Virus record (IMG/VR): IMGVR_UViG_3300005279_000195
Direction: 5' to 3' (one strand)
Length of the DNA stretch: 64,000 bases
Source of the DNA: a virus
Part shown: piece by piece, positions 3,861 through 64,000 of the stretch
Position numbering within the stretch: position 1 is the first letter of the stretch
Layout: every line of letters starts with the position of its first letter
Position numbers and translations under genes: made by a program
The notes under the pieces: generated by a model
What the model was told of the DNA's origin: nothing
Seen by the model: the letters and a program-made list of their open reading frames with translations, nothing else
Databases searched by the model: none

Positions 3861-3939
3861 ATTCAAAGCCCTCCTTATGGGCAACAAAAACCCGCCGTGG
3901 GATGGCGGGGGATGGAAATTAAAGAAAAGGTGTTGGCGG

Positions 3940-15688: not shown

Positions 15689-18642
15689 CCTTGAGTCCTC
15701 CCTGCCTGCTGCTCTGCATCCTGTTGCTCTGTCTCCGCGTTCTCCGCCGCGTCGAGGGGTTCCGGGCCGGTCGGGCCGCGGTCACCCGTAGCGCGTTCGG
15801 CGTTCTGCTGCGCGATATAGTCGGAGACGGACATCTGCATATCCACGCCGCCTTCGGCGAGGGGTTCTTCCGCGAGCGCGGGGTCGGCGATGACCTCGCC
15901 TGTAACCTGCGCGGCAGCCTCCTGCTCGGCACGACGCGCGGCGCGCTGCTGGCGGCGCCATGTGGCGTAGGCCTGAGCCTGCAGACGCTGCTTGTAGTTG
16001 TAAGTAACGCCGAGTAAGCTATGCGCCTCTTCGAGGAACCAGTTGTGATACTCGCCGCCTTTGGGGATAGCGTCTTCTTTAGCCGGGAGGAGGAAAGTAC
16101 CCGTCATAACGAGCTCCTCCTTAGCGCGGGTTGCCGCAACGAACCAGAGACGGAGATTCTCGTCGAACTCGGGGTTCTCGGTGTAGTTGTCATGCTTGTG
16201 ATACTGGTTCTTATCGAAGCGGGAGAGTGTGACGTAGGTTTTGTCCCACTCAAGGCCCTTGGCCGAGTGCGCGGTTGTTATGCAGACGCCTTCGTACACA
16301 CCCTCGCGGCGGAAGGTGTCTTTGCGGCCGTAGCGGTCGAACGCGCGGAAGAAGTCATCGAGCTGAGTGTAGGAAGTACAGCGCTCGATTTTCTCAAGAA
16401 AGTCGCGGTAGCACGCATCGAACATCCCGTCCGGGTCGATGCTGTCGAGAGCGCGGGCTGCGCGGATGAACGCGGACGTCGAGCGCACTGTCGGGAAGCG
16501 GAACTCCTCTATGGCCTGCTCGATTTCTTCTTTTGTTTTCCCTTTGAGACTCCCGTGCCCCATCGCGTTGATGTACGCCGCGATACCAAGAGTACCGCCG
16601 CCGCGCCACGCCTTCCAGAACTCGGTGATGGCACGTACGCGCGGGTCTTTGTAGTACGGAACGGGATTGCAGACCGTTGCCGGAATACCGCGGCGTGCAA
16701 GCTCCGCGGCGATAGGTTCGAGGTCACGGGTCTCGCGGCCCAAGACCGCGATAGATGACGGAGCGCGGCCTGCGGCGATATCCTGCTCGATTTGAGAGCA
16801 GATGAACTGGACTTCGGCATCGGCCGTGTAGAAGCCTCGGACGACAGGCTGAGTCTCAGACTGCTTCGGCGTTACGAGCGGCGCTGTTGCGGCGCGGGAG
16901 ATACGCAGTGAGTTAATCTTGTTGGCGAGGTTCACGATAGGCTGCGGACAGCGCCGGCAAGTCAGAAGGTTCAAATCGGAAAACTCGCCGAAATAGCGGT
17001 CGAAGTTAATCATATACTCAGGTGACGTGAAGCGGAACCCGAAGATAGACTGCGAGTCATCGCCGACCGCCATGAACGACTCGTTGGAGTCCGTGTTAAT
17101 CATTTTCTGAAGGAGCTCGATTTGCGGCAGGTCAGTGTCCTGAAACTCATCGACGATGATGTGTTTGTAGCCCAGAGTGTTGTAGAAATCCGGGTCCATG
17201 TCGCCGAGTTTGCGGACGAGTTTAATCTGGTCGTCGAACTCGACAAGGTTCTTCGCTTTGAGGATTTCCTGATACCGCGTAAACATACGCCGTATCTGAC
17301 CCTCGCACCCGCGGGGCGCGGCAGCCGGGTCGAAGTGGTCGGCTTTGAGGAGCCCGAAGAACTTGACAAGCTGCTTTGTCGCGTTCTTGTCGTACTTATT
17401 CGCAAACTTCTGGCCGTTGGTCGCGTCCACGAACGACGCGTAGTTCCACTCGCGGATAACGGGGAACTCGGCAAGGACCCTGTTGATAATGTCATACTTA
17501 GTCGCGTCGTCTATGACCGACGGGCGGTCAGTGAAGCCTAAGGCTTCATAGTTATCCTGTATAAGCGTCATACAGAACGAGTTGAACGTACCGCACGTCA
17601 TCGCGTCCGGGTCGAACGTCACGCCGCCGTCTTCGCAGTATTGACGAATACGCGCGGTCATCTCCTCCGCACCTGCGCGGGTGAAAGTCAGAAGCGCAAT
17701 GTCCCGCTCCGGAACGCCTGACCGCAGCAACTCGCGGACGCGGAACGCAACGACTAAGGTCTTGCCCGCACCCGGCCCGGCATTGACTCGGGCAACACCC
17801 TCGCGGAAAGACACAACCGCCTGTTGTTCGGGCGAGAGTGTAATCTCCGATATGGGTCGCACCACGCGCAGCGCGTCTTCGGCAAGCGCGGGCTCTTCGT
17901 AGTGGCAGATGCACTCCATATCACAGCGCTCGCAGTCCTCGCCCGAGCATCGTACCGGGACATAGTCCTCGGCAGCCTCGCGCGCGGCGATATCCTGCTG
18001 TTCGCGTTCCACAGTGCGGATGACCTCGTCGATAGGCGCAACGCGCGTACCGCCGTCGGTTCTGCTGCGGGTAGACCCTTCGAGGAAAATCTCCATCACG
18101 CCGGGCCGTTCCTGCGGCAACCCGGTCTCCTCCTCGCGCTCCTCGGCCAGCTTCTCGGCGTACGTGTATAGCGCGTAAGCCTCACGCGACTCTTCGAGCG
18201 AGAGTTTCATAGTGGGCTTGTACTTGCCGGTCTTAACGCGCCCGACATAGATACGCCCGTCATCGGGGCGGGTCATAACGACATCGACGAGGGCACGGAG
18301 GTCCTCGCCGAAATAGTCAATAGTGGTGTCGGCGTCATACGGCACGCGCGAGATAGTCCAGCCCTGCTCGCGCATAGTCTCGCCGCGGAGTGCGATGCCT
18401 TTGATGCACTGTTCCCAGTGGTCGAGGTTCTCAACCATCTGGTCGTAGGACTCGAACCGGTATCCGGCCTGAGTTAAGCGCGACAGCAGCTCGCCGCGGA
18501 TGTTGTCTATGTGCCCGCCGCAGAACGCGCGCAGCGCAACTGCTTTGACGGCGCGGGCGCGGAGCAGGTGGTCGGATGCCGCCTTGACCGACGCGTGTCC
18601 TGGGCACAGGTCTCTGTTGTAGAGGTCTGAAGAAGTCTTCAT
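15685..18642 (-). CDS. SF1A (UvrD/PcrA-like) helicase with N-terminal Cas4/PD-(D/E)XK-like Fe-S domain
   Basis: Walker A AGPGAGKT, IVDEFQD, VGDDSQSIFGFR, TAHSAKGLEW, FVAATRAKEEL; N-terminal Cys pattern C13 plus CSGEDCERCDMEC. Confidence 0.9.
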   Translation of the reverse strand: MKTSSDLYNRDLCPGHASVKAASDHLLRARAVKAVALRAFCGGHIDNIRGELLSRLTQAGYRFESYDQMVENLDHWEQCIKGIALRGETMREQGWTISRVPYDADTTIDYFGEDLRALVDVVMTRPDDGRIYVGRVKTGKYKPTMKLSLEESREAYALYTYAEKLAEEREEETGLPQERPGVMEIFLEGSTRSRTDGGTRVAPIDEVIRTVEREQQDIAAREAAEDYVPVRCSGEDCERCDMECICHYEEPALAEDALRVVRPISEITLSPEQQAVVSFREGVARVNAGPGAGKTLVVAFRVRELLRSGVPERDIALLTFTRAGAEEMTARIRQYCEDGGVTFDPDAMTCGTFNSFCMTLIQDNYEALGFTDRPSVIDDATKYDIINRVLAEFPVIREWNYASFVDATNGQKFANKYDKNATKQLVKFFGLLKADHFDPAAAPRGCEGQIRRMFTRYQEILKAKNLVEFDDQIKLVRKLGDMDPDFYNTLGYKHIIVDEFQDTDLPQIELLQKMINTDSNESFMAVGDDSQSIFGFRFTSPEYMINFDRYFGEFSDLNLLTCRRCPQPIVNLANKINSLRISRAATAPLVTPKQSETQPVVRGFYTADAEVQFICSQIEQDIAAGRAPSSIAVLGRETRDLEPIAAELARRGIPATVCNPVPYYKDPRVRAITEFWKAWRGGGTLGIAAYINAMGHGSLKGKTKEEIEQAIEEFRFPTVRSTSAFIRAARALDSIDPDGMFDACYRDFLEKIERCTSYTQLDDFFRAFDRYGRKDTFRREGVYEGVCITTAHSAKGLEWDKTYVTLSRFDKNQYHKHDNYTENPEFDENLRLWFVAATRAKEELVMTGTFLLPAKEDAIPKGGEYHNWFLEEAHSLLGVTYNYKQRLQAQAYATWRRQQRAARRAEQEAAAQVTGEVIADPALAEEPLAEGGVDMQMSVSDYIAQQNAERATGDRGPTGPEPLDAAENAETEQQDAEQQAGRTQG

Positions 18643-18645
18643 ATC

Positions 18646-18897
18646 TTATATCTCCTTCGAACGCGAGTCGAACGCACTCTTGTTAGTTATATCGAGTTGA
18701 GCAAGTTTGAGTTTGGACGGAGCCTCGTTGAAGAGGTCAAAGACCTTATCGGCCGAGATGTCCATATCGCAAGTCCAAACAGCGAAGTGGCCTGTTGAGA
18801 CCTTCTCATTGCGGGCATACGCACGCATAGCGGAAGGAAGGTCAGGGGTACAGGCGTAGATATCTTCCTGTCGGGTGTCGGTTACTAAGTACCACAT
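18646..18897 (-). CDS. small hypothetical protein (83 aa)
   Basis: AAGGAGG RBS. Confidence 0.7.
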   Translation of the reverse strand: MWYLVTDTRQEDIYACTPDLPSAMRAYARNEKVSTGHFAVWTCDMDISADKVFDLFNEAPSKLKLAQLDITNKSAFDSRSKEI

Positions 18898-19022
18898 CTG
18901 GAAAGCCTCCTTAATATTTTTCTTTTTTTATTTCCCAAATCCCGAGCTGATTTGGGTGAAACGAGTGATAAGTTGGGGGAAACAAAGAAAAGAAAGGGGC
19001 ACCTCTCCGCGCCTCTTTCCCG

Positions 19023-19946
19023 TCATATCTGCCCGCCCGGCCAACTGCTGCGAGAACCACCGCTCGTGCGTCTGTCTCTCGGGATTTTGGCGCGCATCAT
19101 CTCTTCCGGGTCAGGCTCACGCGGCTTGTACCGCTCGCCTAAGAAGTTCTCGTACTTGTACTCGGGGTACTGTATGAGGTACGTCCCGTCGCGTTGCACG
19201 TCAACGTCGAACTTGAGCCCGAACAGACGTGCCGCGAGAAGCAGGTTGTGCACATCCTCCTCCGACTCGACCGAGAACGTCATCATCGCCTCGTCGATGG
19301 TGAGGCCGTACACCTTCGCGACCATCTCGAACAGCGCAAACTCCGGCCGAACAAACTGTTTGACGGGGCACATCGCCGCGGTGGCGAGCACCTCGGGGTA
19401 CACTTCGCGGAACGTATCCGAGAGTTCATCTTTGGCCTCTCCGGGCGGCAGAGGCGCCCCTGCCATCTCCCTTATCGGCGGCAGCGCTGTCAAGAGCACC
19501 GCCTGAAGCGAGACACCCTCGAACGCTGCGATATCATGTATCATCGCGTATGGGCGTGCCGGAGTGTCGGATGGCAGAGGCACGGGAAAACCGCGCTTAT
19601 CCGTTCGCGGATGCCTGACGAGGTCGCGTATCTCGCGGTTCTTGAGCCTTACCGCTATGCCGTCTTTGACCGGTTCGATGAGCGGCGGTAAGTCCGCGTC
19701 GATACGGCGTCTCAGTTTCGGTGTGCCACCCACTATGTAGTACCACGACCGCGGCGAAAGAAGTGGCGGAACGGACGTGAACCAAGACACATCCGCGTTG
19801 AACCGCTCCGATATGGGGTCTATCTTCTCCGAGCCCCAGCACATTGCCTGAAAGACCAACGCGGCGTACCCGGTGGGTATATAGTCCGAGTAGTCCGGGA
19901 TGCGCCCGGCTGCCGTTGCGAAGAAATCTGCGAAGTACCGGTGCAT
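19023..19946 (-). CDS. hypothetical protein (307 aa)
   Basis: ATG overlaps the upstream TGA (TGATG); AAGGAGG RBS. Confidence 0.75.
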   Translation of the reverse strand: MHRYFADFFATAAGRIPDYSDYIPTGYAALVFQAMCWGSEKIDPISERFNADVSWFTSVPPLLSPRSWYYIVGGTPKLRRRIDADLPPLIEPVKDGIAVRLKNREIRDLVRHPRTDKRGFPVPLPSDTPARPYAMIHDIAAFEGVSLQAVLLTALPPIREMAGAPLPPGEAKDELSDTFREVYPEVLATAAMCPVKQFVRPEFALFEMVAKVYGLTIDEAMMTFSVESEEDVHNLLLAARLFGLKFDVDVQRDGTYLIQYPEYKYENFLGERYKPREPDPEEMMRAKIPRDRRTSGGSRSSWPGGQI

Positions 19947-20332
19947 CACGAACCTCCTTCGTCGAGTGGATAAGCATACTCGAACTCGGGCAGAGGCGCT
20001 TGTGCTTCGTAACACTGTGCCAACTCGGCGCACCATGAGAGCACAACGATTTGTGGCGCGTAGTTGCGTTCGGTAACTGTTGCGACGACACCGCCCGCGC
20101 AGAGCCGAAGCAGTAAGTCGGTATGGTTGTTGCGGGCCAACGCGAGGTTCAGGCCTGGCACGCGCTCATCTACCCACTCAGGGTCGCCGAGTAGATACAG
20201 CTCGCGCAGAACCATGTGCGCCAGGTCGGCGTTGACATCCTGCGCGGGTCTGTCATAGACCGCCGCGAGGAAGTCGCGACCGGAGCGAAGCATATCCGCG
20301 CAGGAGTCCAAGAACGGGAAATCTGAGAGCAT
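19946..20332 (-). CDS. hypothetical protein (128 aa)
   Basis: Translationally coupled ORF. Confidence 0.75.
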   Translation of the reverse strand: MLSDFPFLDSCADMLRSGRDFLAAVYDRPAQDVNADLAHMVLRELYLLGDPEWVDERVPGLNLALARNNHTDLLLRLCAGGVVATVTERNYAPQIVVLSWCAELAQCYEAQAPLPEFEYAYPLDEGGS

Positions 20333-20889
20333 CAGAAAATCCTCCTTTCGGTAGTGTATGTAAACGGCGCCAGCTTAGCCCAGAGCGCAGTGTACTCGGG
20401 ATAGTTCTCGTACCCGAGGCCCGCAGCGAGATATTTGAGCTCGTCCGGTGCGCGTTCGCTTTCAAGAACATGGGATATATCCGCGGCAGACAGATGTCCC
20501 TCATCTACCAACGCCCAGAGTTTCTCCGGGTCGGTACAGAGCAGCTTGTCCACGCGCAGCGAGTCCTCGTCGTAGGGTGTGTAGTCGGGCACGCGCGCGG
20601 AGAGTCCGCACTCGGCAAGCCACGAGCGCAGCGCAAGGTTGGCTCCGCCCTTCCTGCCGCGCCCGGCCTGCACCGCCGCGCCCGCGAGACAGGCGCCTCC
20701 GCACGCAAGTGTGCCTGCGGAAAAGTAACGCGTTGTCATATCGCGCCACCACGGTACAGGGACGGCGCTCTTGCCGTCGGTCGCGGTGACGGGGTGGTTA
20801 GTTACGACGTGGGAGACGAACTTGCGGGCCGAAACGGGCCCCAAACACTCCATCAGCGTCATACAGACATTAACATCAACCTCGTTCAT
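20332..20889 (-). CDS. hypothetical protein (185 aa)
   Basis: Translationally coupled ORF. Confidence 0.7.
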   Translation of the reverse strand: MNEVDVNVCMTLMECLGPVSARKFVSHVVTNHPVTATDGKSAVPVPWWRDMTTRYFSAGTLACGGACLAGAAVQAGRGRKGGANLALRSWLAECGLSARVPDYTPYDEDSLRVDKLLCTDPEKLWALVDEGHLSAADISHVLESERAPDELKYLAAGLGYENYPEYTALWAKLAPFTYTTERRIF

Positions 20890-20890
20890 A

Positions 20891-21430
20891 TCAGATGGGC
20901 CTCCTTGTGTTCTGGGCTTTAAGATGCGCTGCGATAGTCTCTATGACGCGCACCTTATCCTGCGGCGTTTCGGGCTCGTCCAAGCCGAAGTAGTGCGCAG
21001 CCTCGACCCACGTCGGCGGTTTGAACCCCACGCCGCCCTGCGGATACGGGATACGGATGATATCGGCGAGGTCGCGTTGGATGTCGTGATACTTCGGATA
21101 GATGCCGTATTGGGCAAAGACCGACTGAACGAACTCGCCGCCCCAGACCATGAGAACCAAGTCGGGGTCTTCGAGGATAGTCTTGTACGCCGCGGCGCAC
21201 GCCTCGAAAGTCTTGGGAATGTTAATGTCCGCGTCTGTGAGTGAGTGGAACTGCGACACGATAGGCTTTCCGCCCGCACGGGGGAACACGGCCAGCTTCA
21301 CGCGACCTCTATTCTCGCCGTAACGGGGCTCGGTGCAGAGCCCGACCAACTCGGTCGGATTGCCATAAGTGGCGAGGCGGGGCAAAGGCCCGCAGGTCTC
21401 CACGACCGCGATACAAAGTTTTTGTGCCAT
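20891..21430 (-). CDS. degenerate DEDDh (DnaQ-like) exonuclease-fold protein (179 aa)
   Basis: CIAVVETCG, LVLMVWGGEFVQSVF, PTWVEAAHYFGL..PQDKVRVI align with the ExoI/II/III layout but most acidic residues are replaced; AAGGAGG RBS. Confidence 0.5.
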   Translation of the reverse strand: MAQKLCIAVVETCGPLPRLATYGNPTELVGLCTEPRYGENRGRVKLAVFPRAGGKPIVSQFHSLTDADINIPKTFEACAAAYKTILEDPDLVLMVWGGEFVQSVFAQYGIYPKYHDIQRDLADIIRIPYPQGGVGFKPPTWVEAAHYFGLDEPETPQDKVRVIETIAAHLKAQNTRRPI

Positions 21431-21710
21431 AGGAACTCCTCCTTTTCTTGCTGTTTCCAAATCCGGTAATGATAGACCAACGCTTGTCGGGGACGAAAAC
21501 AAGAAAAAGAGGCCGCCACTCTCGGCAGCCCCTCTCCCGGTCTTCTGCGCCCCAACAGAAAACTCCCCGACAGTATCAGGGAGTCTTCTTGCGTCGTGAT
21601 ATAATGAATTGTATTTCGGGGCCATACCTTCCGCCCCGACCATACCCATAGTATATACCATTTTTTCCGCAAGTGTGTGCGTTTTTGGCCCCTAAATAGC
21701 ACTTTTACTC

Positions 21711-21738
21711 TTGAAATCTGATTATCATAAGTTATAAT
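21711..21738 (+). promoter_or_regulatory. sigmaA promoter of the SNF2 operon
   Basis: TTGAAA-16-TATAAT. Confidence 0.65.
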
Positions 21739-21799
21739 GTAGATAAGGAAAGGCACATACAATTTAAGATAAGTTAACCGAGAGAAAGACAACACAACT

Positions 21800-23194
21800 A
21801 TGGAGTATCGACCGCATACATATCAGGCAAAAGCCACCGAGTTCATCAAGCGCATACCCACCTGTGCCCTGTTGCTCGACTGCGGTCTCGGTAAGACCGT
21901 GATAACCCTCACCGCGATAGAAGAGCTGGGTCTTCACAACGTGCTGGTTGTGGCGCCGAAACTGGTCTGCGGCACATGGGAGCGCGAGGTTAACAAGTGG
22001 GACCATCTGGAAGGCCTGACCGTCGCGACAGCGGAGGGCACGGCCGCCAAGCGCACCGCGAAGATATTAGAGCCTGCCGACATCCACATCATATCCCGCG
22101 ACAACATCGCGTGGCTGAAGAAGTCGGGACTCGTAGACCTGAACTCGTACGACATGATAGTGATGGACGAGTCATCGTCATTCAAGAACTGGTCTGCCGC
22201 AAGGACCAAGGCGCTGATGGACTTGCCCTCACCGCGGAAAGTCATCCTCACGGGAACGCCGATGCCGAAGAACATCCAGGACCTGTTCGCGCAGTACAAG
22301 ATACTCGACGGCGGGCTCCGGCTGGAGAGCACCATCACAGCGTTCCGCGGCAAGTATATGCGACTGGTTGACCCCGCGAGATACATCTATAAGCCCTTAC
22401 GCGGCGCAGACGTAACCGTGTTCTCCCGTATCCGGGACATCACGATGTCTATGAGAAGCTCAGAGTTGCTCGACCTGCCGCCGATAACCACTGTTCACAA
22501 CGAGGCAGAGCTGAACGAGAGTGAGCGCGCCGTGTATGACACTATGAAGCGCGACTTCTGTTTGGAGTTGGCGGGGCAGGATATCACGGCGGTCAACGCG
22601 GGGGTCTTAACCGGGAAGCTGTCGCAGATAGCCAACGGGTTCGTGTATGACGAGTTCGGGAACGCCCGTGAGCTCCATCACCGGAAAGAGGAAGTTATAG
22701 AGCCCGTGCTGGAAGCGTCCGCGGGTCAGGGCGAGGATGTCATCGTCGGATACACGTTCAAAGAGGACAGGGTCCGCTTGGAGGCGTTGTGTCATAAGTT
22801 AGGCCTTCCTTGCTTCGACTTGAAGTCCCGAGAGGCCATCGACGCGTTCCTCTCGCCCAACACGGGCAACGTCGGAAGAGTCGCGTTGATACACCCGAAG
22901 TCGGCCGGGTTCGGACTTAACCTGCAGGAGAACTGCCACCGTCTCATCTGGTACTCACTGCCCTGGTCGTACGAGGAGTTCGTCCAGACCACCGCAAGAG
23001 TTTACCGACAGGGCCAGCAGCGACACACATACATACACATTATCGAGACGAAGAACTCGATAGACCAGACCATCCGCGCGGCTATCAACAGCAAAGGCCG
23101 CTGCAACGATACATTGAAAGACCAAACGAAATATATGATTGAGGAGGTACAATCTTATGTCCAGCAACCAAGACAGACGCACGGGCAGATTTAA
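21800..23194 (+). CDS. phage-type SNF2-family helicase
   Basis: LLDCGLGKT, MDESSSFKN, LTGTP, HPKSAGFGLNLQ, QTTARVYRQGQ. Confidence 0.92.
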   Translation: MEYRPHTYQAKATEFIKRIPTCALLLDCGLGKTVITLTAIEELGLHNVLVVAPKLVCGTWEREVNKWDHLEGLTVATAEGTAAKRTAKILEPADIHIISRDNIAWLKKSGLVDLNSYDMIVMDESSSFKNWSAARTKALMDLPSPRKVILTGTPMPKNIQDLFAQYKILDGGLRLESTITAFRGKYMRLVDPARYIYKPLRGADVTVFSRIRDITMSMRSSELLDLPPITTVHNEAELNESERAVYDTMKRDFCLELAGQDITAVNAGVLTGKLSQIANGFVYDEFGNARELHHRKEEVIEPVLEASAGQGEDVIVGYTFKEDRVRLEALCHKLGLPCFDLKSREAIDAFLSPNTGNVGRVALIHPKSAGFGLNLQENCHRLIWYSLPWSYEEFVQTTARVYRQGQQRHTYIHIIETKNSIDQTIRAAINSKGRCNDTLKDQTKYMIEEVQSYVQQPRQTHGQI

Positions 23195-23504
23195 GGATAC
23201 AGAGCGCGAGACCGTCAAACTTTTAGACACCGTTATCCGCTACCCGGACGTTGGGTCAATGACCGAAGACGCGCGCCGCATCCGAGTCGGCCTGAACAAC
23301 TATATGGCTCTGGCCGGGGTCAGACCCACTCAGAAAGAAGTGGTGAATCTCGTGGTCGGAAAGGGCTGGCAACCTTGGCCCGAAGACGCACACACCAGCA
23401 TCTCCCGCCACGACTATCGCCGTTCTTACAAGAGGGCATTATACCGACTCGCCGACTACTTGGAGGAAGTCGAGTTCCTGTACGAAGGGATGGTGGTAGC
23501 ATGA
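23157..23504 (+). CDS. possible ArpU/RinA-like transcriptional regulator (115 aa)
   Basis: C-terminal ISRHDYRRSYKRALYRLADY resembles the ArpU/sigma-4-like helix; follows SNF2 as in Firmicutes phages. Confidence 0.45.
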   Translation: MSSNQDRRTGRFKDTERETVKLLDTVIRYPDVGSMTEDARRIRVGLNNYMALAGVRPTQKEVVNLVVGKGWQPWPEDAHTSISRHDYRRSYKRALYRLADYLEEVEFLYEGMVVA

Positions 23505-24247
23505 GCCATAAGACTGCCGTCAACCCTTGGTTCAACCCGAGGAACAGAGAACATATCCGGCTGTGGATATCTACTCTGAATAAGCATACCGCGCTGCCGT
23601 TGGACGCGAGATACAACATCTGGCTTAACAGTGTGGCGATGGACGACAAGGGCCGCCTTATGCCGGGCCTGACCGACGCGCCTGAGTTCCTTGTAAAAGA
23701 CGAAGATTTGACGAAGTGGGTCAAAGACGTTGACCTGTACGCGCCAAGGCCGGAGTTGAAGCGCTACTACTCGAAAGCGGACTTGGCTGAGTACGACTTC
23801 TCTGTATCATACTACTTTCTGCACCGAGCCGAGGTGCACAGCAGGGTACGCCGAATGCGCAGCATCGACCAGATGGACCCAACGGACAGACCTACACGCG
23901 AGAAGAACCCCGGCGAGGGCCACGTGGACTTCATACCCGAGATGACAACGCGCCGTATGGTGACTGATGCCGTCTTCCTGCGAAACCTTCGGTATCTGCA
24001 GCACAAGATAACGGCATACGAGAGCATCATCATCGGCACGGCGATACGGGAGCTCGGCCTCGACGCCGAGGCTGTAATCGACTGGTTCCTGTGCCGCGAG
24101 AGCCGATGGTCTGACAAGATAGCGTCCGAGGCTGACAAAGACAGGGTCACACAGGCATTGGAGGAGTTGGAGTATGCGTACTGCGAGAGCCACGGCGTAG
24201 CGTGGGAGTCATCCATACTCCCGTGGATGCGACTGCCCGCGGAGTAG
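23501..24247 (+). CDS. hypothetical protein (248 aa)
   Basis: ATG overlaps the upstream stop. Confidence 0.75.
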   Translation: MSHKTAVNPWFNPRNREHIRLWISTLNKHTALPLDARYNIWLNSVAMDDKGRLMPGLTDAPEFLVKDEDLTKWVKDVDLYAPRPELKRYYSKADLAEYDFSVSYYFLHRAEVHSRVRRMRSIDQMDPTDRPTREKNPGEGHVDFIPEMTTRRMVTDAVFLRNLRYLQHKITAYESIIIGTAIRELGLDAEAVIDWFLCRESRWSDKIASEADKDRVTQALEELEYAYCESHGVAWESSILPWMRLPAE

Positions 24248-24301
24248 TCCCTACTACAACATATAGTGGTTTCTTATATTTATTTTCGGAGGATAAACAC
24301 A

Positions 24302-24691
24302 ATGACGAGACTTGAAGATTTGACAGAGGGCAACTGGAAGTATCTTATAGGCGAAACGGACACCATCGTGATGTCGCACGTAGACTATGGCGACGGCGAC
24401 CCTATGCACACAATCTACTGGCAGTGCCCCGCGTTCCCCGAGCTCGGCGGCGAGATGCCGGTTGACATAAACTCGGACTGGGGCAAGGAGTTATGCGCGA
24501 CCGAGAGCGCCAACCTCGACGCGAAACTGGGCGCGGTGCTGAAACAGACCGGCTTTGACGGCTGGAAGACTATCCGCGACCAGATAACCGAAGCGGCTGC
24601 GACGAGCAGAGGGTTTTCCGACATGATAGCGTTCCGAGCAACGCACGTCCCGGCGCAGCAGGCCGAGGAGGAACAAACGCGAAGGGCTTGA
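24302..24691 (+). CDS. hypothetical protein (129 aa)
   Basis: GGAGG RBS before the ATG at 24302; its TGA overlaps the TTGACA of the next promoter. Confidence 0.75.
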   Translation: MTRLEDLTEGNWKYLIGETDTIVMSHVDYGDGDPMHTIYWQCPAFPELGGEMPVDINSDWGKELCATESANLDAKLGAVLKQTGFDGWKTIRDQITEAAATSRGFSDMIAFRATHVPAQQAEEEQTRRA

Positions 24692-24721
24692 CATAAGTGA
24701 TAATGTGCGGTACTATAGCCG

Positions 24722-24801
24722 TGTCAGTCACCCGGATTCTCTGGCACAGAGATATACAGGAAAAACCCACCCCAACCACTACGACTTACGGGTGGGTTTT
24801 T
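24722..24801 (+). ncRNA. candidate sRNA unit 1
   Basis: TTGACA(24688)-17-TACTAT; 5' hairpin GTGTCAG/CTGGCAC; 12-bp terminator stem AAAAACCCACCC/GGGTGGGTTTTT. Confidence 0.65.
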
Positions 24802-24873
24802 CGTCGCTGATATTCTTTGCATAAATAGCAAGATAAATGTTGCACTTTGTAGCCGGTATGCTATAATAAGTAT

Positions 24874-24945
24874 AGAAAAACATTCGACTATCTATCCCTT
24901 ATTCCAGCGCTTGAGCCCTGCCGATTGGTGGGGCTCAAACGTTTG
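24874..24945 (+). ncRNA. candidate sRNA unit 2
   Basis: TTGCAC(24840)-16-TATAAT with extended TG; hairpin TTGAGCCC/GGGCTCAA and a short U-tract; no ORF. Confidence 0.6.
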
Positions 24946-25012
24946 TAAAAAACTTGCAAGAAATTATCATAAAGTGCTTGCAATCATTTTACAGACGTGT
25001 TATAATAACATT

Positions 25013-25090
25013 ATCAAATAAGACACTTATCCAATCTATCCCTTATCTATAGCCCCGTTGGTTTCCCTCCTTATGACTGACGGGGCAAAT
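25013..25090 (+). ncRNA. candidate sRNA unit 3
   Basis: TTGCAA(24978)-17-TATAAT with extended TG; hairpin GCCCCGTTGGT/ACTGACGGGGC with loop TTCCCTCCTTATG; weak U-tract. Confidence 0.6.
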
Positions 25091-25131
25091 CCTTGCTTGA
25101 CAGAATAAGTGGTGTGCCTTATACTACAAGC

Positions 25132-25224
25132 GTTCATTCTTTCGGTTCCTGGGATGGGCATGACTTTACCTTCTATATTTTTGGGATTACCCCGACTGCC
25201 CTTACCGGTTGTCGGGGTTTTCTT
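25132..25224 (+). ncRNA. candidate sRNA unit 4
   Basis: TTGACA(25097)-17-TATACT; terminator ACCCCGAC/GTCGGGGT followed by TTTCTT. Confidence 0.65.
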
Positions 25225-25286
25225 ATCCATATTTTTTGTTTCCGCACCTTCGCCGCTCCGCCCCCGCCATCTGCTATAATAGTCTT

Positions 25287-25373
25287 GCCGAAAGGCTGGG
25301 TATATTGGAAATCATAGATTTCCCGAAGTGGCCCGATGACGGCGCTGACGAACACGCCGTTGTCGGGTTTTCT
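25287..25373 (+). ncRNA. candidate sRNA unit 5
   Basis: Extended -10 TGCTATAAT (25272), poor -35; hairpins GCC-GAAA-GGC and GGAAATC/GATTTCC; 13-bp terminator followed by TTTTCT. Confidence 0.55.
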
Positions 25374-25455
25374 CACACACCCACCCGCTTTTTCTTGTTT
25401 CCTGCCGTGTCTCTCCCGACTTGACTTATATGCTAATATCTTGTATCATATACAT

Positions 25456-25643
25456 ACCCTAATAAGAGTTGTACGGAACTAAGCTAAACTTAACCGAACG
25501 CTACTCAAACGAGTTTGAAGCAGACATTTCTCGACTACACCAAAAGATTGCTAAACCAAGGGCCCGACACAGGGCTCTTTTGGTTTCTCAAGGAGAGGAA
25601 AACAGAAAAAGAGAGGGCGACCGTTATGGCCGCCTCTTTTTTG
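25456..25643 (+). ncRNA. candidate sRNA unit 6
   Basis: TTGACT(25421)-17-TATCAT; hairpin at 25553-25586, then a bidirectional terminator at ~25606-25643; no credible RBS/ORF. Confidence 0.5.
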
Positions 25644-25660
25644 TGCATTATGTGCAAAGT

Positions 25661-26188
25661 TTACACCTCAGGTTGTGCACTTTGCTCACCGACCTCTTGT
25701 TGCCTCGGCCCGCGCCTTTTCTTGCCCGTTAAACCGAGTTTCCTGCCCCAAGACCCCACGGTACTCTCCGCCAAGCCATACTTGCCCGCGAGCTCTTTAG
25801 CCGTCATGCGTGTGTAGTCGCGTTTGAAACCCTCGATATCGCGCAGCGCTGTGTTGTGCGTTGTGGTCTTGCCGTAGGTTAGCTTGTATTTTTCGAGCCA
25901 CTTGGTTACGGTTACGCGTTTCACGCCGTATCTGTCCGCTATCTCCTGCGCCGTGCAGGATACGTACAGCGCCTCCAGCGTCTCTCTGTCGGGGCAAGCG
26001 GACTGCCTGCCCGCGGGTTTGATGCCGTAGAGGCGCATCCATCGTGCCAGTGTGCAGGTGGACACCCCGTATATTTCTGCGACGTCGGTCATCCGCAGAC
26101 GCTCGCCGTCGATTAAGTGTCGCAGCGATTTCTCGTCGGGGACTTCTATCCGCGCTCTGTGCCCGCGCCTATCGGTTTTGTTACTCAC
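25661..26188 (-). CDS. protein with three tandem HTH motifs (175 aa)
   Basis: MTDVAEIYGVSTCTLARWM, TAQEIADRYGVKRVTVTKWL, TAKELAGKYGLAESTVGSWG; GGAGG RBS. Confidence 0.8.
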   Translation of the reverse strand: MSNKTDRRGHRARIEVPDEKSLRHLIDGERLRMTDVAEIYGVSTCTLARWMRLYGIKPAGRQSACPDRETLEALYVSCTAQEIADRYGVKRVTVTKWLEKYKLTYGKTTTHNTALRDIEGFKRDYTRMTAKELAGKYGLAESTVGSWGRKLGLTGKKRRGPRQQEVGEQSAQPEV

Positions 26189-26193
26189 ACATA

Positions 26194-28254
26194 TCACCTC
26201 CCTCTTGCGAAGTCGAACTCGACCCCACTCTTGTCGTCGCGCAGCTTGAGCGCCGCGTCGAACTTCTTGCCCGCCTTGGACACGAACCCGGATATCTTGC
26301 CGGAGTGCCCTGTAGACAGGAGCGCCTCCGCTTCTTTAAGCGGTATCTTCTTGTTGCACATCTCCTTCCATATAACGAACCCGCACTTGTCGCGCCCGGC
26401 AACGCACGAGTATCCCTTCGGGGTCTCGACCACGTCCGCGCCGCACTTGGGGCACTTGCCGATGGGTTTGTTATCCGCGAGAGTTTGCGGCAGTACGTCG
26501 CCGCGGTGCTCGTCGAGGAACGTCTCCAGGAACTGATGTATCTGCATCATAAACATATCCGACGGATACCCGCCCTCGGCAATGTCGGTCAGGGACGCTT
26601 CCCAGTCCGCGGTCATAGCCGGGTCTTTTATCCTGTCCCAGACCATCTCGATGAATGTGCGTCCCTTCTCGGTTGCGACCAGTTTGGACTTCGACCTCTT
26701 GATATACCCAACTTTAACCAGCTGCTCGATGATGGAGGCGCGGGTAGCCGGCGTTCCGAGCCCCTTACCGCGCATAGCCTCGCGGAGCGACTCGTCATCG
26801 AGGTCTTTGCCACAGGTCTCCATCGCGCCGAGGAGGGTGTTCTCCGTGTACGACGGCGGCGGTGTTGTGAACTTCTCCTGCGTTTCCAGCGAGATTACCG
26901 CGAACTCATCACCCTCGGCCATCTCCGGCAGAATGTTCTCGCGGACGGAAGCACTCTTCCCGATGTCGTCGTAGAGTGCTGCGACGACCGCTTTGTAGCC
27001 GAAGTCAATCATCCGCTTGCCCGTGGCGGCAAACTCGTAGCCCGATATGTCGAGCTTGGCCGATGTCGACTCGTAGTGCGAGTCGGGTGCAAGCGCGATG
27101 GGAAGTCTCCAGAGCACCAGCTGCATGATGTGCCGGGCCTTATCCGCCAACGAGCGCAAGACGGGCAAGGTTAGCGCCGTTGTGGGCAGTATGGCGTGGT
27201 GGTCGGAGACCTTTTTATCGTCGATAACCCTGTCGATGGCAGGTTCGAACCCGAGTTTGGTACCGGGGAAAAGCCCTGCCAGGTAGAGAGTGTTGAGAAG
27301 TTCTAACGTGGACTCCCGTTGCGATGAGGTTAAGTACCTGCTGTCGGTACGCGGGTACGTCGCAAGCCCGGCCTCGTAGAGCCCCTGCAACTGTTCCAGT
27401 GTCTCCGCCGCGGTGTAGCCGAACAGCCGGTTGGCATCGCGCTGCAGAGTGGTTAAGTCGTAGAGTTTCTCAGGCTTGTCCGTCACGGTCTTCTTCTCCA
27501 ACGCGGTGCATCGCGCGATGCCGCCCGTGCACGCCGCAGCAACTGTGTCCGCAGTCTCTTTGTCCTCCTCGCGGTGCGTAGCGGTGAACCCGCCCAAGTC
27601 CGCGGCGAGGATGTAGTACGGCACAGGCACGAAGTTCTCTATCTCTTTGTCTCGGGAGACGATGAGGTTGAGGACCGGAGTCTGTACGCGGCCCGCTGTC
27701 AGGAGCGTCCCGCACTTGGCGGTGTAGTACCGTGAGAGGTTGATGCCGATAAGCCAGTCGGCCTGTTGACGAGCGAGCCCCGACTCGTAGAGCGAGTCGT
27801 AGTCGGACGCCGGACGCAGGTTGGACATCGCCTCGGCAAGCGCCGACGGCTCCATCGAGGATACCCAGAGGCGCAGCACGGGCTTGTCACATCGGGCGAG
27901 GTTGTAGACCAGGCGGAATATGAGCTCGCCTTCACGCCCCGCGTCGGTTGCTTCTATTACCGTGTCGATATCCGCCCGCCTCATCAGTGACGAGACGACG
28001 CCGAACTGCTTAGCGCCCGACTCGGTTACCTTGTACTCGAACGGGTCGGGTATGATGGGCAGGTCGCGGACATCCCAGCGCTTGTAGCGCTCATCATACT
28101 CCGCGGCATCCTGCAACTCGACTAAGTGCCCGAAGCACCAGGTCACAATGTAGCCTCCGCCTTCCGTGTATCCGTCGCCGTACGATGTAGCGCCGACAAC
28201 ACCCGCGATAGAGCGGGCTACGGACGGCTTTTCTGCAACTATAAGCTTAGGCAT
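26194..28254 (-). CDS. topB: DNA topoisomerase III (type IA)
   Basis: LIVAEKPSVA, ATDAGREGELIF, GRVQTP, catalytic TYPRTDS, GLGTPATRA.II; C-terminal Zn-ribbon/C-tail. Confidence 0.95.
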   Translation of the reverse strand: MPKLIVAEKPSVARSIAGVVGATSYGDGYTEGGGYIVTWCFGHLVELQDAAEYDERYKRWDVRDLPIIPDPFEYKVTESGAKQFGVVSSLMRRADIDTVIEATDAGREGELIFRLVYNLARCDKPVLRLWVSSMEPSALAEAMSNLRPASDYDSLYESGLARQQADWLIGINLSRYYTAKCGTLLTAGRVQTPVLNLIVSRDKEIENFVPVPYYILAADLGGFTATHREEDKETADTVAAACTGGIARCTALEKKTVTDKPEKLYDLTTLQRDANRLFGYTAAETLEQLQGLYEAGLATYPRTDSRYLTSSQRESTLELLNTLYLAGLFPGTKLGFEPAIDRVIDDKKVSDHHAILPTTALTLPVLRSLADKARHIMQLVLWRLPIALAPDSHYESTSAKLDISGYEFAATGKRMIDFGYKAVVAALYDDIGKSASVRENILPEMAEGDEFAVISLETQEKFTTPPPSYTENTLLGAMETCGKDLDDESLREAMRGKGLGTPATRASIIEQLVKVGYIKRSKSKLVATEKGRTFIEMVWDRIKDPAMTADWEASLTDIAEGGYPSDMFMMQIHQFLETFLDEHRGDVLPQTLADNKPIGKCPKCGADVVETPKGYSCVAGRDKCGFVIWKEMCNKKIPLKEAEALLSTGHSGKISGFVSKAGKKFDAALKLRDDKSGVEFDFARGR

Positions 28255-35179: not shown

Positions 35180-35311
35180 TTGACAACGGAAGGCAGCGCG
35201 GTGATAATATAATTAGCCTTTTGTTTAATTTCAATCCTCGCAAAAGATTTGAAAACAAAGAAAGAAGTGAGTGATTTTAGTATTGCACTTCTGATAATAA
35301 GTTGTTATAAT
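35180..35311 (+). promoter_or_regulatory. two tandem sigmaA promoters divergent from the XRE gene
   Basis: TTGACA(35180)-17-GATAAT and TTGCAC(35283)-17-TATAAT. Confidence 0.65.
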
Positions 35312-45902: not shown

Positions 45903-46216
45903 ACGAGAGTAAGTCAAAGGAGATTTTAATTATGGAACACCCTTTATCCCCCGAAGCAGTTGAGCGCATCAGGCAACTCCGTTCCGAGTTCGCGCCCTAT
46001 GCCGAACGCGGTTGGATGTACGAAGGCACCGACGGCGGTTGGATTGTGTTCAACAACAACACAGGCGAGCGGTTCTTCGCGACCGAAAGCGGTGAGGCGC
46101 AAGAACTGTGTCTTGCCGGCACGAGCAAGTACGTTGCGAACTATATGGCGGAGATTATCACCGGAATAGATGAGGTTATCCGAGAAGACGAGAGATACGG
46201 AGGATTGAACTTATGA
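45899..46216 (+). CDS. hypothetical protein (105 aa)
   Basis: Coupled ORF (alternative start at 45932). Confidence 0.7.
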   Translation: MNESKSKEILIMEHPLSPEAVERIRQLRSEFAPYAERGWMYEGTDGGWIVFNNNTGERFFATESGEAQELCLAGTSKYVANYMAEIITGIDEVIREDERYGGLNL

Positions 46217-46404
46217 TTGATGTCGAAAGAGTGTGCGAGATACTGCACGAATACACAGATATGGACATTGAAAGATACGACTACGAGATGGTTCGCAGAC
46301 GTATGGACGAGATTGGAGTCACCGACGAGGAACTCGAAGCGATGGGTTTGGAACATCTTATCCGAGAGCCGGGCGACCCGTATATCTCGGTAATTGACCG
46401 ATGA
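46213..46404 (+). CDS. small acidic protein (63 aa)
   Basis: GGAGG RBS, ATGA overlap. Confidence 0.7.
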   Translation: MIDVERVCEILHEYTDMDIERYDYEMVRRRMDEIGVTDEELEAMGLEHLIREPGDPYISVIDR

Positions 46405-46473
46405 CTTTTTCTCTAATTTTCGCTCAAGACGAAAACAGAAAAAGAAGTGATGGACTGTAAGGAGGCCTAACTC

Positions 46474-46848
46474 ATGGGAAAGAAGATACAACTCAGACCC
46501 GGATACAAGTTTCGGAAAGTCAACACCCGCCTGTATGACGGCAACGACAAACTGAAGTGGATATGGGCCGAGGCCACCGACGAGTTTATTCTCCGGGCGG
46601 CAAGCGGGACAAACTACCTTATCCACATTATCCACGCCGGGAACTGTAATAACGCAGAGGCGTCTGTCATATCCGAAGACGATGCGGCGAAGTACGAGAC
46701 CTGCCCGCCGGAAGAACTGCGGGATTTGTATAAGGCTTCGGTTACCGTTGTATCCCTTGACCCGGACGAGTACGAGGAGAGCAGACCCACCTTGCTCGAT
46801 GTTATCCGCGCTATCTATAAGCGCGAAGACGAGGCCGCCGTGAGATGA
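46474..46848 (+). CDS. hypothetical protein (124 aa)
   Basis: AAGGAGG RBS. Confidence 0.75.
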   Translation: MGKKIQLRPGYKFRKVNTRLYDGNDKLKWIWAEATDEFILRAASGTNYLIHIIHAGNCNNAEASVISEDDAAKYETCPPEELRDLYKASVTVVSLDPDEYEESRPTLLDVIRAIYKREDEAAVR

Positions 46849-48314
46849 CACACGGCAAAGTCTCACCGCGCATCCTGCTCTCCGCCGTCGCGCTGTATGT
46901 TCTGCTCGCGGTGGTTATCCGTCGGTATTGTCTCGACAACGATACGTGGTTCTTGCTCTCGACCGGGCGATACTTGGTCGAGGGCGGCTTTGACTTCCCC
47001 GCGACTAACCCGTGGCTGTCCTACTCAGCGCACTTTTGTGGGCACTTGCCGATAGTCGTGCAGCAGTGGGGCTGGACCGTGATGATGTACGCGGCTTACA
47101 GTGCCGCGGGCCGCATCGGACTGTGGGCTTTGACCTGCGTGACCGCCGCGGTGTGCGGTGCGCTTATGACCCGACTGATACTCGCGCGGCACGGGAACGC
47201 CGCGATAGCGTACCTCTTCCCGCCCGTTGCGATATATCTTTCAAGATACCTGTTGACCGACCGCCCCGAGGGCGTCACGGTGATACTGCTGCTCCTCCAA
47301 TGCCTGCTGATAGAGCGCGGGGCAAGGCGCCCCGTGCGCTATGCGTTGGGACATATCGCGATAGTAATAGCCGAGGCCAACCTGCACGCGGCGACACTGC
47401 CCGTGCATATTCTGGTTTGGGCGGCATACCTTGTAAAAGAGCCCAAGACCCAAAAGGACTTTGACACGGCCCTCCGAACGGTTGCGCCCGCGATGGTCCT
47501 CTCAACGCTCGCCGGGCTCATCAATCCGTACACGTACCGCGGCGCTCTATACGGTGTAATGTCGCTTGTGTATATGCACGGCAGCGGAGTCGGCACGGCG
47601 GAGATGAACCCGCCCGCGTTGCAGAGTATACCTGTCGCGGTGCTGGTTGTCGCGTGGCTCATACTCGGCGTGAGACTGTACCGGGACCGCGCGTTGCAGA
47701 ACACGACGCTCAACATGGCACTCGGTATGACCGCGATGGTCGTAGTAAGCACGAAATACACATTGCTCTTGCCCCTGTTCTTGGCCTATGTCGTCTCCGA
47801 GATAAAACTCCCCGAGATAAGCGCCGAGAGGATTTCCCGGTGGGGCAAGACCGCAGCGGTTTTGCCGAGCGTAATTATTCTCGGCGCCGCTGCCGCGGTG
47901 TTCCCTACAACCGACCTCACCGCGCCGTTTGAAACGGAGTGGAAAGAGGCTGCCGAGTGCATGGACCCGAACTCGAAGGTGTTCGCCAACTATATCGGGA
48001 ATGGCTACCTGGAGTGGGAAGGGTTTGATAAATTATATCTGGACGAGCGCGCGGAACTGTTCACCGAGCTGACAGGTTCGGACAGACTTGCGCGGATGTT
48101 AAGCCTTGACAGTATCGACGAGACGGAAGAGTTCCTGAACGACGGAGACTTCGATTACGTTATGCTCACCGAGTCGGAGGGCAACGAGAACATCACTATG
48201 GCGATGTATCTGAAAGAGAAATACCCCGAGTCGGTTATATACGAGAGCGAGTACGGCGGGTATGCCGTGCAGGTGTTCGACGTACGAGATATTACGTTCG
48301 GGGAAGGAAATTAA
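46845..48314 (+). CDS. polytopic membrane protein, GT-C (glycosyltransferase)-like
   Basis: About 10 TM segments; DNDTWFLLSTGR.+ loop after TM1, QQWG, DRPE, W.N+H-like EANLH, NPY, and GYLEW...YLDERAE in the C-terminal domain. Confidence 0.6.
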   Translation: MTHGKVSPRILLSAVALYVLLAVVIRRYCLDNDTWFLLSTGRYLVEGGFDFPATNPWLSYSAHFCGHLPIVVQQWGWTVMMYAAYSAAGRIGLWALTCVTAAVCGALMTRLILARHGNAAIAYLFPPVAIYLSRYLLTDRPEGVTVILLLLQCLLIERGARRPVRYALGHIAIVIAEANLHAATLPVHILVWAAYLVKEPKTQKDFDTALRTVAPAMVLSTLAGLINPYTYRGALYGVMSLVYMHGSGVGTAEMNPPALQSIPVAVLVVAWLILGVRLYRDRALQNTTLNMALGMTAMVVVSTKYTLLLPLFLAYVVSEIKLPEISAERISRWGKTAAVLPSVIILGAAAAVFPTTDLTAPFETEWKEAAECMDPNSKVFANYIGNGYLEWEGFDKLYLDERAELFTELTGSDRLARMLSLDSIDETEEFLNDGDFDYVMLTESEGNENITMAMYLKEKYPESVIYESEYGGYAVQVFDVRDITFGEGN

Positions 48315-63495: not shown

Positions 63496-64000
63496 TGTGT
63501 CTTTTCTCCTCGACAATTTGCTCTTGTCTCTTTTTATCTTTATCTATAGCCGCCGCGACCGCCGCAGATTGCGGCGTTCCGACCGCGGTTGGTGCCTCGT
63601 AGTTGAACAGGTTCTTGAATAGAGGGTTGATTGAAACCAAAGAAACGGCCTTGCCGTTCTTCAGACGCAACCACCCTGTCTTCTTGTTGAATTTCATTCC
63701 GTGTTCATCAAGGTTCTTTTTAAGTTCCGCCTCGTTGGGTGAGGCCATTCTGATATCGACAAGTTCCGCCTCTAAGCGGCCTTTATCAAACCTCTCCTTC
63801 GGTTTCTTTTCCGTCACAGTGAGGTTGTACTCTGCGCACACCTTGTCGGTCACCGCTTTCAGGCGGTAATAGTTCTTCTCGTTGTTGACCGCTTTGTGCC
63901 CATCCCGGAACGATACCGAGTTTACGAAGAAGTGGCAGTGCAACGTGTCCGTGTTGGTATGCACCGAGAGGAGAACTTGGAAGTCTTCTCCCCACATCTC
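63485..64000 (-). CDS. MOBP-type relaxase, C-terminal part (start beyond window end)
   Basis: FQVLLSVHTNTDTLHCHFFVNSVSF.DG.K (HUH motif III) followed by Y.+LK...D.+C.EY.L. Confidence 0.88.
   Translation of the reverse strand, partial: EMWGEDFQVLLSVHTNTDTLHCHFFVNSVSFRDGHKAVNNEKNYYRLKAVTDKVCAEYNLTVTEKKPKERFDKGRLEAELVDIRMASPNEAELKKNLDEHGMKFNKKTGWLRLKNGKAVSLVSINPLFKNLFNYEAPTAVGTPQSAAVAAAIDKDKKRQEQIVEEKRHNGV

Follow-up and report, generated by a model that had tools for sequence, protein, structure and literature searches.

The DNA analysed here, a stretch of 64,000 nucleotides (nt) referred to throughout as the window, is IMG/VR virus record IMGVR_UViG_3300005279_000195 and belongs to a conjugative element found only in metagenome contigs of up to 139 kb, which are 100% identical over the region. 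Two convergent operons of this element, one with a gene for an SNF2-family helicase and the other with the topoisomerase III gene topB, enclose a gap of about 970 bp (24692-25660), and in this gap lies an array of six promoters and seven hairpins, the theme of the present report. An earlier interpretation made from the letters alone, called below the sequence-only reading, had described the array as a battery of six small RNA (sRNA) genes acting when the element arrives in a host.

Promoters and hairpins between convergent operons

No usable Shine-Dalgarno (SD) sequence was found before any start codon in the gap, a Pfam search of every stop-to-stop frame at E values up to 10 gave neither a match nor a protein-domain remnant, and the gene calls of the Joint Genome Institute (JGI) place nothing in the gap of one contig and a single weak gene of 51 amino acids (aa) in that of a second; all three agree with the sequence-only reading that its roughly 950 bp hold no credible open reading frame (ORF). 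No tRNAs were detected, and the Rfam search which that reading had proposed, run with cmscan and all 4227 families, matched none of them: nothing reached gathering score in the whole window, and the array region at E up to 10 gave noise only, with no LhrC, CRISPR-DR or ToxI match. Tandem Repeats Finder reported no tandem repeats in the array, where only short two-copy repeats are present, and the GC content of the region dips locally to 28%. Bidirectional terminators bracket the gap at both ends, so that its truly orphan part is 24803-25606.

The six promoters of the sigmaA type listed by the sequence-only reading are all present where it placed them, on the + strand (Table 1), and three have an extended -10 box. 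Dinucleotide-preserving shuffles of the 980 bp region itself (n = 1000) contained 0.18 +/- 0.43 promoters per strand, with a maximum of 2 in the 1000, against six observed on the + strand and zero on the - strand. When a strong site is defined by at least 4/6 matches in the -35 box and at least 10/12 overall, or by 9/12 with a TG extension, the two strands of the window together have 19 such sites, four of them in the array and all on the + strand; the motif TGNTATAAT occurs nine times on both strands (0.84 expected), three times in the array, again always on the + strand. Since other strong sites stand just upstream of long ORFs, such as those at 21711 before the SNF2 gene and at 35180/35303 before a DUF2800 gene, these data suggest that the element really uses the promoter type seen in the array. 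The -35 box of P1 overlaps the TGA stop (24689-24691) of the 141-aa ORF upstream, and an imperfect inverted repeat around the -35 box of P3 may be an operator or a pair of face-to-face promoters.

An unbiased local-fold scan found seven hairpins of -15.7 to -27.5 kcal/mol, which start at 24760, 24911, 25052, 25175, 25325, 25540 and 25607, compared with 3.2 +/- 1.3 strong hairpins in shuffles (P about 0.02). Promoters (P) and hairpins (H) alternate strictly, in the order P-H-P-H-P-H-P-H-P-H-P-H-H, with each promoter 40-110 nt 5′ of its hairpin and the strong hairpins lying downstream, clear of the -35 and -10 boxes. Five of the seven hairpins (those of units 1, 4 and 5 and both of unit 6) have a U-tract on the + strand, and U-tracts lie on the + side except at the two bidirectional terminators at the ends. 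The predicted transcripts of units 1-5 are far more stable than their shuffles (z = -3.4 to -4.4); for unit 6 the margin is smaller (z about -1.7 to -2.0). The earlier statement that each promoter precedes a strong hairpin, mostly with a U-tract, is thus right as to the interleaving of the seven hairpins and needs amending on three counts: unit 3 (U3; the units are abbreviated U1 to U6) has no U-tract, that of U2 is weak, and the end hairpins belong to the flanking operons. The promoter-hairpin architecture is real, far beyond chance, and unusual.

Table 1. Coordinates of the array, of reading frames called within it and of genes discussed in the text (positions in the window; nt, nucleotides; aa, amino acids)
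Feature	Position	Strand	Description
P1	24688-24716	+	TTGACA-17-TACTAT
Unit 1	24723-24803	+	predicted RNA of ~80 nt
P2	24840-24867	+	TTGCAC-16-TATAAT; extended -10 with TGn (TGCTATAAT)
Unit 2	24874-24950	+	predicted RNA of ~70 nt; single-stranded 5′ part; hairpin 24911-24939 (-21.5 kcal/mol)
Imperfect 27-nt inverted repeat	24939-24998	.	centre ~24968; spans two TTGCAA boxes and the -35 box of P3
P3	24978-25006	+	TTGCAA-17-TATAAT; extended -10 with TGn (TGTTATAAT)
Unit 3	25013-25096	+	sibling of unit 2; hairpin 25052-25087 (-20.3 kcal/mol)
P4	25097-25125	+	TTGACA-17-TATACT; 11/12 match
Unit 4	25132-25226	+	predicted RNA of ~95 nt; 5′ hairpin, then terminator hairpin followed by TTTTCTTAT
P5	25272-25280	+	extended -10 only (TGCTATAAT); no usable -35
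Unit 5	25287-25376	+	predicted RNA of ~90 nt; terminator hairpin followed by TTTTCTC
P6	25421-25449	+	TTGACT-17-TATCAT
Unit 6	25456-25645	+	predicted RNA of 135-190 nt; body weakly structured
41-aa ORF	25154-25279	+	Pro/Leu/Phe-rich, hydrophobic; within unit 4; no SD; crosses terminator
51-aa gene	25223-25376	-	weak call by the JGI caller in one contig; no SD; crosses terminator hairpin
SNF2-family helicase gene	21800-23194	+	upstream operon
Orphan 141-aa gene	24266-24691	+	129 aa per JGI; last of the SNF2 operon; absent from related plasmids
Orphan multi-HTH protein gene	25661-26197	-	175-178 aa; last of the topB operon; two to three helix-turn-helix (HTH) units (HTH_23, HTH_28)
topB	26194-28254	-	topoisomerase III; downstream convergent operon
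Relaxase gene, C-terminal part	63485-64000	-	MobA/VirD2-type nuclease domain (PF03432, E = 1e-15); truncated by the window's right end

The units are not equal in standing. The hairpin of unit 1 (24760-24802), a perfect 13-bp stem with an A-run before and a T-run after it, is the bidirectional terminator of the SNF2 operon, so that unit 1 is at best a candidate sRNA of the 3′ untranslated region (3′-UTR) type; at the other end, the second hairpin of unit 6 (25607-25643) is the bidirectional terminator of the operon of topB and the HTH gene, and the first terminator of this unit (25558-25579) is followed by TTTTGGTTTC and then by the purine-rich AAGGAGAGGAAAACAGAAAAAGAGAGGG. As U3 has no U-tract, read-through from it into unit 4 is likely. 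Local-fold elements of the two units that come next are 25175-25233 for unit 4 (-25.4 kcal/mol) and 25325-25375 for unit 5 (-27.5 kcal/mol), the latter including the terminator hairpin. A side observation concerns a 16-nt pyrimidine stretch at 25388-25403, past the unit 5 terminator, which is 88% complementary to the purine-rich AGGAAAACAGAAAAAG of unit 6 (25596-25611); the two could pair only within a read-through transcript, and AGGAAAACAGAAAAAG, which resembles an SD mimic, could base-pair with U2 and U3 at their C-rich motifs as well.

Pairwise local alignments with shuffle controls gave two significant pairs, U2/U3 (z 4.9) and U4/U5 (z 4.3), and left the other 13 at background, save for a weak U2/U5 signal (z 2.5, P about 0.03). 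The sequence-only reading, which had held that the transcripts differ and that the array is no simple tandem duplication, is therefore correct for most pairs and overlooked these two. U2 and U3 have in common the start of the -35 box, a TGYTATAATA box and the identical 13-mer ATCTATCCCTTAT, whose copies at 24890-24902 and 25034-25046 lie 144 bp apart; in both folds this C/U-rich 13-mer, with its core UCCCUU, is single-stranded and just 5′ of the hairpin, whereas the hairpins themselves are unrelated GC stems. U4 and U5 resemble each other at the 3′ end, in the terminator's 3′ arm, the U-tract and a T-rich tail (GTTGTCGGGKTTT, TTTYTTGTTTCC). Both pairs are diverged siblings that go back to old duplications; in part, at least, the array therefore grew as sets of sibling sRNA genes do, by copying and later divergence, and the perfect retention of the 13-mer in otherwise diverged siblings suggests selection. 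Both U2 and U3 have AUCCCUUAU in a single-stranded context, and the 11-nt loop of the U3 hairpin exposes CCCUCCUU, which resembles an anti-SD sequence; the other units have no clear motif. The terminator loop of unit 4 carries CCCTTA (CCCUUA in the RNA), a hexamer not enriched across the window, with 3 of its 19 copies in the array.

A candidate cluster of small RNA genes

On these observations (promoters and hairpins, their interleaving in a single orientation, sibling relations, and no coding capacity), the array is read here, tentatively and with slightly less confidence than would make it probable, as a lineage-specific cluster of small non-coding RNA genes in which U2 and U3 are LhrC-like, C-rich, SD-occluding regulators. 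Five or six genes would be transcribed independently, each from its own sigmaA-type promoter, into RNAs of 70-190 nt ending in a GC-rich hairpin, five of the seven hairpins being predicted intrinsic terminators on the + strand. The single-stranded UCCCUU 13-mer of U2 and U3, together with the U3 loop CCCUCCUU, would pair with G-rich SD regions in mRNAs of the host or the element and thereby block translation initiation, a mechanism modelled, for at least these two units, on the C-rich sRNAs LhrC, RsaE, RNAIII and FsrA of Firmicutes. That the units are transcribed into stable, trans-acting RNAs is our inference from the sequence.

LhrC and other Gram-positive sRNAs bind their targets via UCCC-type motifs in single-stranded stretches and terminator loops (PMC4132741). 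The array resembles the LhrC1-4/LhrC5 genes of Listeria monocytogenes in that predicted genes of about 100 nt lie side by side, each having a promoter and a hairpin terminator to itself, and it may resemble the UCCC class more widely (LhrC, RsaE, RNAIII, SprD, FsrA) through CU-rich motifs in single-stranded segments and in a terminator loop, with predicted pairing to SD regions. It differs in matching the LhrC/rli22 covariance model neither in sequence nor in structure, in carrying the motif in only two of six units, in the heterogeneity of its units, LhrC being five near-identical copies, and in its location, LhrC being chromosomal and the array plasmid-borne and confined to one element. The parallel with tandem sibling sRNAs proposed earlier thus extends to the UCCC motifs of U2 and U3 and to the individual promoters and hairpins, and not to general kinship, as only two pairs are siblings.

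Candidate targets were sought in the window. The 11-mer CCCTCCTTATG (25065-25075), made up of the U3 loop and the first stem bases, can pair without a mismatch with two SD regions of the - strand (2535-2545 and 3869-3879), and of 78 start regions 4 are matched by 8-mers of the U3 loop, where shuffled loops give 0.77 (P about 0.035); the same 8-mer test on these start regions gave no enrichment for the other units. U3 also matches, over 8+4 bp, the start region at 54876 of an 848-aa gene with a CHAP domain (weak Pfam match), which we take as no more than a lead (P about 0.1). When up to three mismatches are allowed, the window has 15 complements of the shared 13-mer, nine being expected, and none is convincing. 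As these searches gave little, the targets, if any, probably lie in the host. The ribosome-binding regions that the U3 loop matches, at 2531-2548 and 3866-3882 on the - strand, share the 13-mer CATAAGGAGGGCT followed by GAAT(AT)GAA; one precedes an ORF of about 142 aa, and the other lies before what looks like a 19-aa ORF, which is coupled to the stop codon of the gene preceding it.

Several points weigh against an sRNA cluster of this kind. The array is a singleton known from one element, all contigs that carry it are 100% identical, and no homologues turned up in plasmid, phage, genome, viral and metagenome collections or in the related plasmids; searches for sequencing runs containing the element listed none. 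At the level of units, U1 may be a mere operon 3′ UTR with a chance promoter, P5, which has no -35 match, is the weakest promoter call, and the U-tract is missing in U3 and weak in U2. As to targets, the shared 13-mer has no significant one in the window; the anti-SD match of the U3 loop is what any CCUCC loop gives, and the two SD regions concerned resemble each other; and whole-RNA comparison by duplexfold with 157 candidate start regions placed nothing above shuffled RNAs, in a method whose energies are dominated by GC stems and which is uninformative here.

The junction in related plasmids and rival explanations

Relatives of the element were compared at eleven loci on eight distinct contigs, their SNF2 proteins being 52-58% identical to that of the window. 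The shared backbone (with the junction, 18302-26300 in the window; loci L054-L066 in the relatives), which was also compared by tblastx, comprises a protein of about 900-930 aa, a UvrD-like helicase with an N-terminal PD-(D/E)XK domain, and four or more small genes on one strand; its divergent half consists of SNF2, a gene of about 110 aa and one of about 245 aa. After the ~245-aa gene the relatives carry further protein genes, whose number ranges from about 3 to 25 among the loci seen and which include DUF3825 and DEAD-box helicase genes and, in one lineage, Rep3, DnaB_2 and two methyltransferases (N6/N4); the junction after this gene is a hot spot for cargo. In three loci (L058, L061, L065) the operon meets the topoisomerase operon head-on across a gap of 88-136 bp with a single bidirectional terminator.

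The sequence-only reading had called for homologues of the array in related elements, and this search came out empty: none exists in the eleven loci, and the three that reach the junction have the terminator only. The related loci contain no gene-free gaps of at least 250 bp with promoters, and neither nucleotide nor tblastx comparison revealed similarity of the array to them. Further afield, blastn in a mode for distant matches found nothing like the array region in plasmid and phage collections; the best relatives of the topoisomerase in metagenome contigs are 25-37% identical, and their loci lack promoter-rich gaps; and a pattern scan (-10 box, gap, 13-mer) gave 19 matches in genome contigs and two in viral ones, as many as chance would give, none extending past the pattern. 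As the relatives have a single terminator at the junction and no array, the array and its two orphan neighbours are, on this comparison, lineage-specific cargo at a variable junction, and not a conserved feature of the family. Absence from the relatives argues against a conserved system, without showing that the units are inactive.

An unlikely alternative is that the array is debris of the junction, produced as cargo turned over at a recombination hot spot: promoters, leaders and terminators of former autonomous gene units, or "gene-less morons", left behind after loss of the coding parts and perhaps giving short RNAs without selected function. Phage morons are autonomous promoter-gene-terminator insertions, and the units resemble them in having their own promoter and factor-independent terminator and in lying between conserved modules; they differ in that no gene lies inside them, so that the payload, if any, would be the RNA itself. 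Debris would account for an unconserved singleton placed exactly where related plasmids differ in gene content, with orphan genes on both sides and with two units, U3 and U2, lacking proper U-tracts. Yet no protein remnant was found in any frame, by Pfam or by tblastx against the relatives, and decay does not predict six intact near-consensus promoters in one orientation and none in the other. The small genes of the relatives, moreover, are packed in operons without internal promoters or terminators and so offer no source of such units, and the 13-mer kept perfectly in diverged siblings suggests selection.

Somewhat more doubtful still is a role in cis, as a DNA or transcription element: a buffer against read-through, a transcription-activated origin or primer site (for PolA/VapE), or a post-transfer single-strand origin (sso) or single-stranded DNA (ssDNA) promoter. 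The array lies exactly at a convergent junction between two bracketing bidirectional terminators, has the local GC dip noted above and weak hairpins of about -11.5 kcal/mol over the -10 boxes of P1, P4 and P5, and belongs to an element that encodes a family A polymerase and a VapE primase-helicase. But at the same junction a gap of 88-136 bp with one terminator suffices in the relatives, neither iterons nor tandem repeats are present, and the only DnaA-like box in the array has one mismatch, while a terminator of its own after each promoter would be pointless for a primer or an origin. For the same want of iterons, with a single mismatched DnaA-like box and no adjacent rep gene, a theta/iteron replication origin was rejected. 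The ssDNA promoters and single-strand origins of conjugative and rolling-circle plasmids include Frpo/ssi, ssoA/ssoU and ICEBs1 sso1. With these the array shares structured non-coding DNA on a conjugative element and, as predicted, recognition by RNA polymerase; unlike Frpo and ssoA, however, its promoters are of the ordinary duplex type, with boxes outside the strong stems, and it lies about 38 kb from the relaxase gene. Nor does this distance support the earlier suggestion that the RNAs act on arrival, as it gives no backing to a place in a classical leading region in either direction of transfer, though oriT itself, which lies outside or at the edge of the window, was not located.

Improbable, too, are RNA decoys, that is, Racr-like mimics of CRISPR repeats, mimics of antitoxin RNAs or protein sponges, in which every hairpin RNA would sequester another factor of the host. 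Racr and solitary repeat units on mobile elements have this layout, a short hairpin RNA right behind a strong orphan promoter (PMC10651486), and here the promoters likewise lie within 250 bp upstream, with no cas domain among the window ORFs scanned. The hairpins are heterogeneous between units, and the variable cargo belongs to an element that also encodes a methylase, a GmrSD-like nuclease and an unannotated CBS-domain protein. Against decoys stand the absence of any Rfam match at E up to 10, also to the models of CRISPR-DR and ToxI, and the absence of direct repeats; no acr-like gene is known beside the array. The array differs from Racr also in that its hairpins carry U-tracts, like plain terminators. 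The type III toxin-antitoxin system ToxIN differs from the array, which has neither tandem repeats of about 34-36 nt nor a + strand gene after it. The Racr and ToxI-mimic parallel drawn by the sequence-only reading thus found no backing in likeness to a CRISPR repeat, ToxI or any Rfam family.

Least of all do we expect micropeptide or type I toxin-antitoxin genes in the units: the 41-aa ORF, the only longer hydrophobic one in the gap, does begin 22 nt past the predicted start of unit 4, and a 51-aa gene was called on the - strand, but both lack an SD sequence and cross terminator hairpins, no - strand promoter exists for an antisense partner, and the array shows neither of the two features of type I systems, an SD-bearing ORF and an antisense promoter. 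An exhaustive phmmer search with the 41-aa ORF against 1.84 billion representatives matched only a repetitive 697-aa protein (E = 8e-5, six stretches), probably a compositional artefact, and neither phmmer nor Pfam assigned it a family. Two further candidates were rejected, a decayed IS630-like transposase with the HTH gene as its N-terminus and the gap as its DDE part (no Pfam match in any frame, and a strong terminator right after the HTH stop) and integron attC sites (by inspection, the 3′ arms of the hairpins read GTTGTCG, not GTTRRRY, and there is no integrase).

An sRNA cluster, which we continue to prefer, would have precedents. Mobile elements carry sRNAs such as the Spr RNAs of Staphylococcus aureus pathogenicity islands, DicF, AgvB and AsxR of prophages, and RteR of CTnDOT. 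Like the predicted units, these are acquired horizontally, have their own promoters, end in terminators and lie in accessory regions; unlike them, they are single or scattered, whereas the array packs five or six units head-to-tail into less than 1 kb with no protein gene between. We found no description in the literature of differing non-coding units, each with a promoter to itself, packed so densely head-to-tail at a place where related plasmids have a single terminator, and since sRNAs of mobile elements and tandem sibling sRNAs are already known, it is the dense heterogeneous array that appears to be new. A bolder version, to which we give little credence, is that of an RNA-only cargo module in which one orphan gene and a battery of five or six different RNAs have taken the place of most of the protein genes found in the relatives between the SNF2 block and the topB operon. 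Each constitutively promoted RNA would then be tuned to a different host target, be it SD regions or, as decoys, defence or RNA-binding proteins; the orphan multi-HTH protein might control the RNAs, and plasmid establishment or host manipulation might proceed by RNA alone.

Should these RNAs be transcribed and work in trans, the array would show that RNA-only accessory modules can be part of conjugative plasmids in gut or anaerobe Bacillota. The array is a compact 1-kb test object, with the prediction for U2 and U3 that the UCCCUU seed and the anti-SD loop occlude SD regions; its value is limited in that it is a singleton in an uncultured element and its function is predicted from sequence.

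The surrounding element

That the element is conjugative, as the sequence-only reading had stated, is confirmed by a relaxase fragment (PF03432), a VirD4-type coupling protein, whose relatives are mostly from Bacillota, a VirB4/TraG-like ATPase and a CHAP-domain protein (weak Pfam match). The relaxase gene runs off the window, and oriT probably lies just beyond. Other genes encode a DUF3991/Toprim protein and a replication set of phage type (family A polymerase, VapE, DUF2800).

The SNF2 operon consists of SNF2, a gene of about 115 aa (JGI), an ORF of 248/290 aa and the ORF of 129/141 aa that ends at 24691. The protein of this last gene matched only itself among 5.8 billion proteins and had no match in genome contigs. 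Its counterpart at the end of the topB operon, the multi-HTH protein, has HTH units like those of transposases, small terminase subunits or excisionases and likewise found only itself among 5.8 billion proteins; in the related plasmids a different gene of 114-129 aa takes its position after the topoisomerase gene. It may regulate the array. Exact copies of TGCACTTTG number just two in the window and lie on either side of the array, one at 24841-24849 in the -35 box of P2 and one at 25676-25684 in the 3′ end of the HTH gene, where it belongs to a 15-nt inverted repeat (25651-25665 / 25674-25688) to which the orphan HTH protein may bind; as an operator motif, TGCACTTTG was rejected for lack of enrichment in the window at one mismatch.

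Far from the array, two abutting 9-mers on the + strand at 46619-46636, TTATCCACA (exact) and TTATCCACG, form the only exact DnaA box and the only tandem pair of such boxes in the window, and may mark an origin or a DnaA-regulated promoter near the genes at 46141-46866 and 46845-48314.

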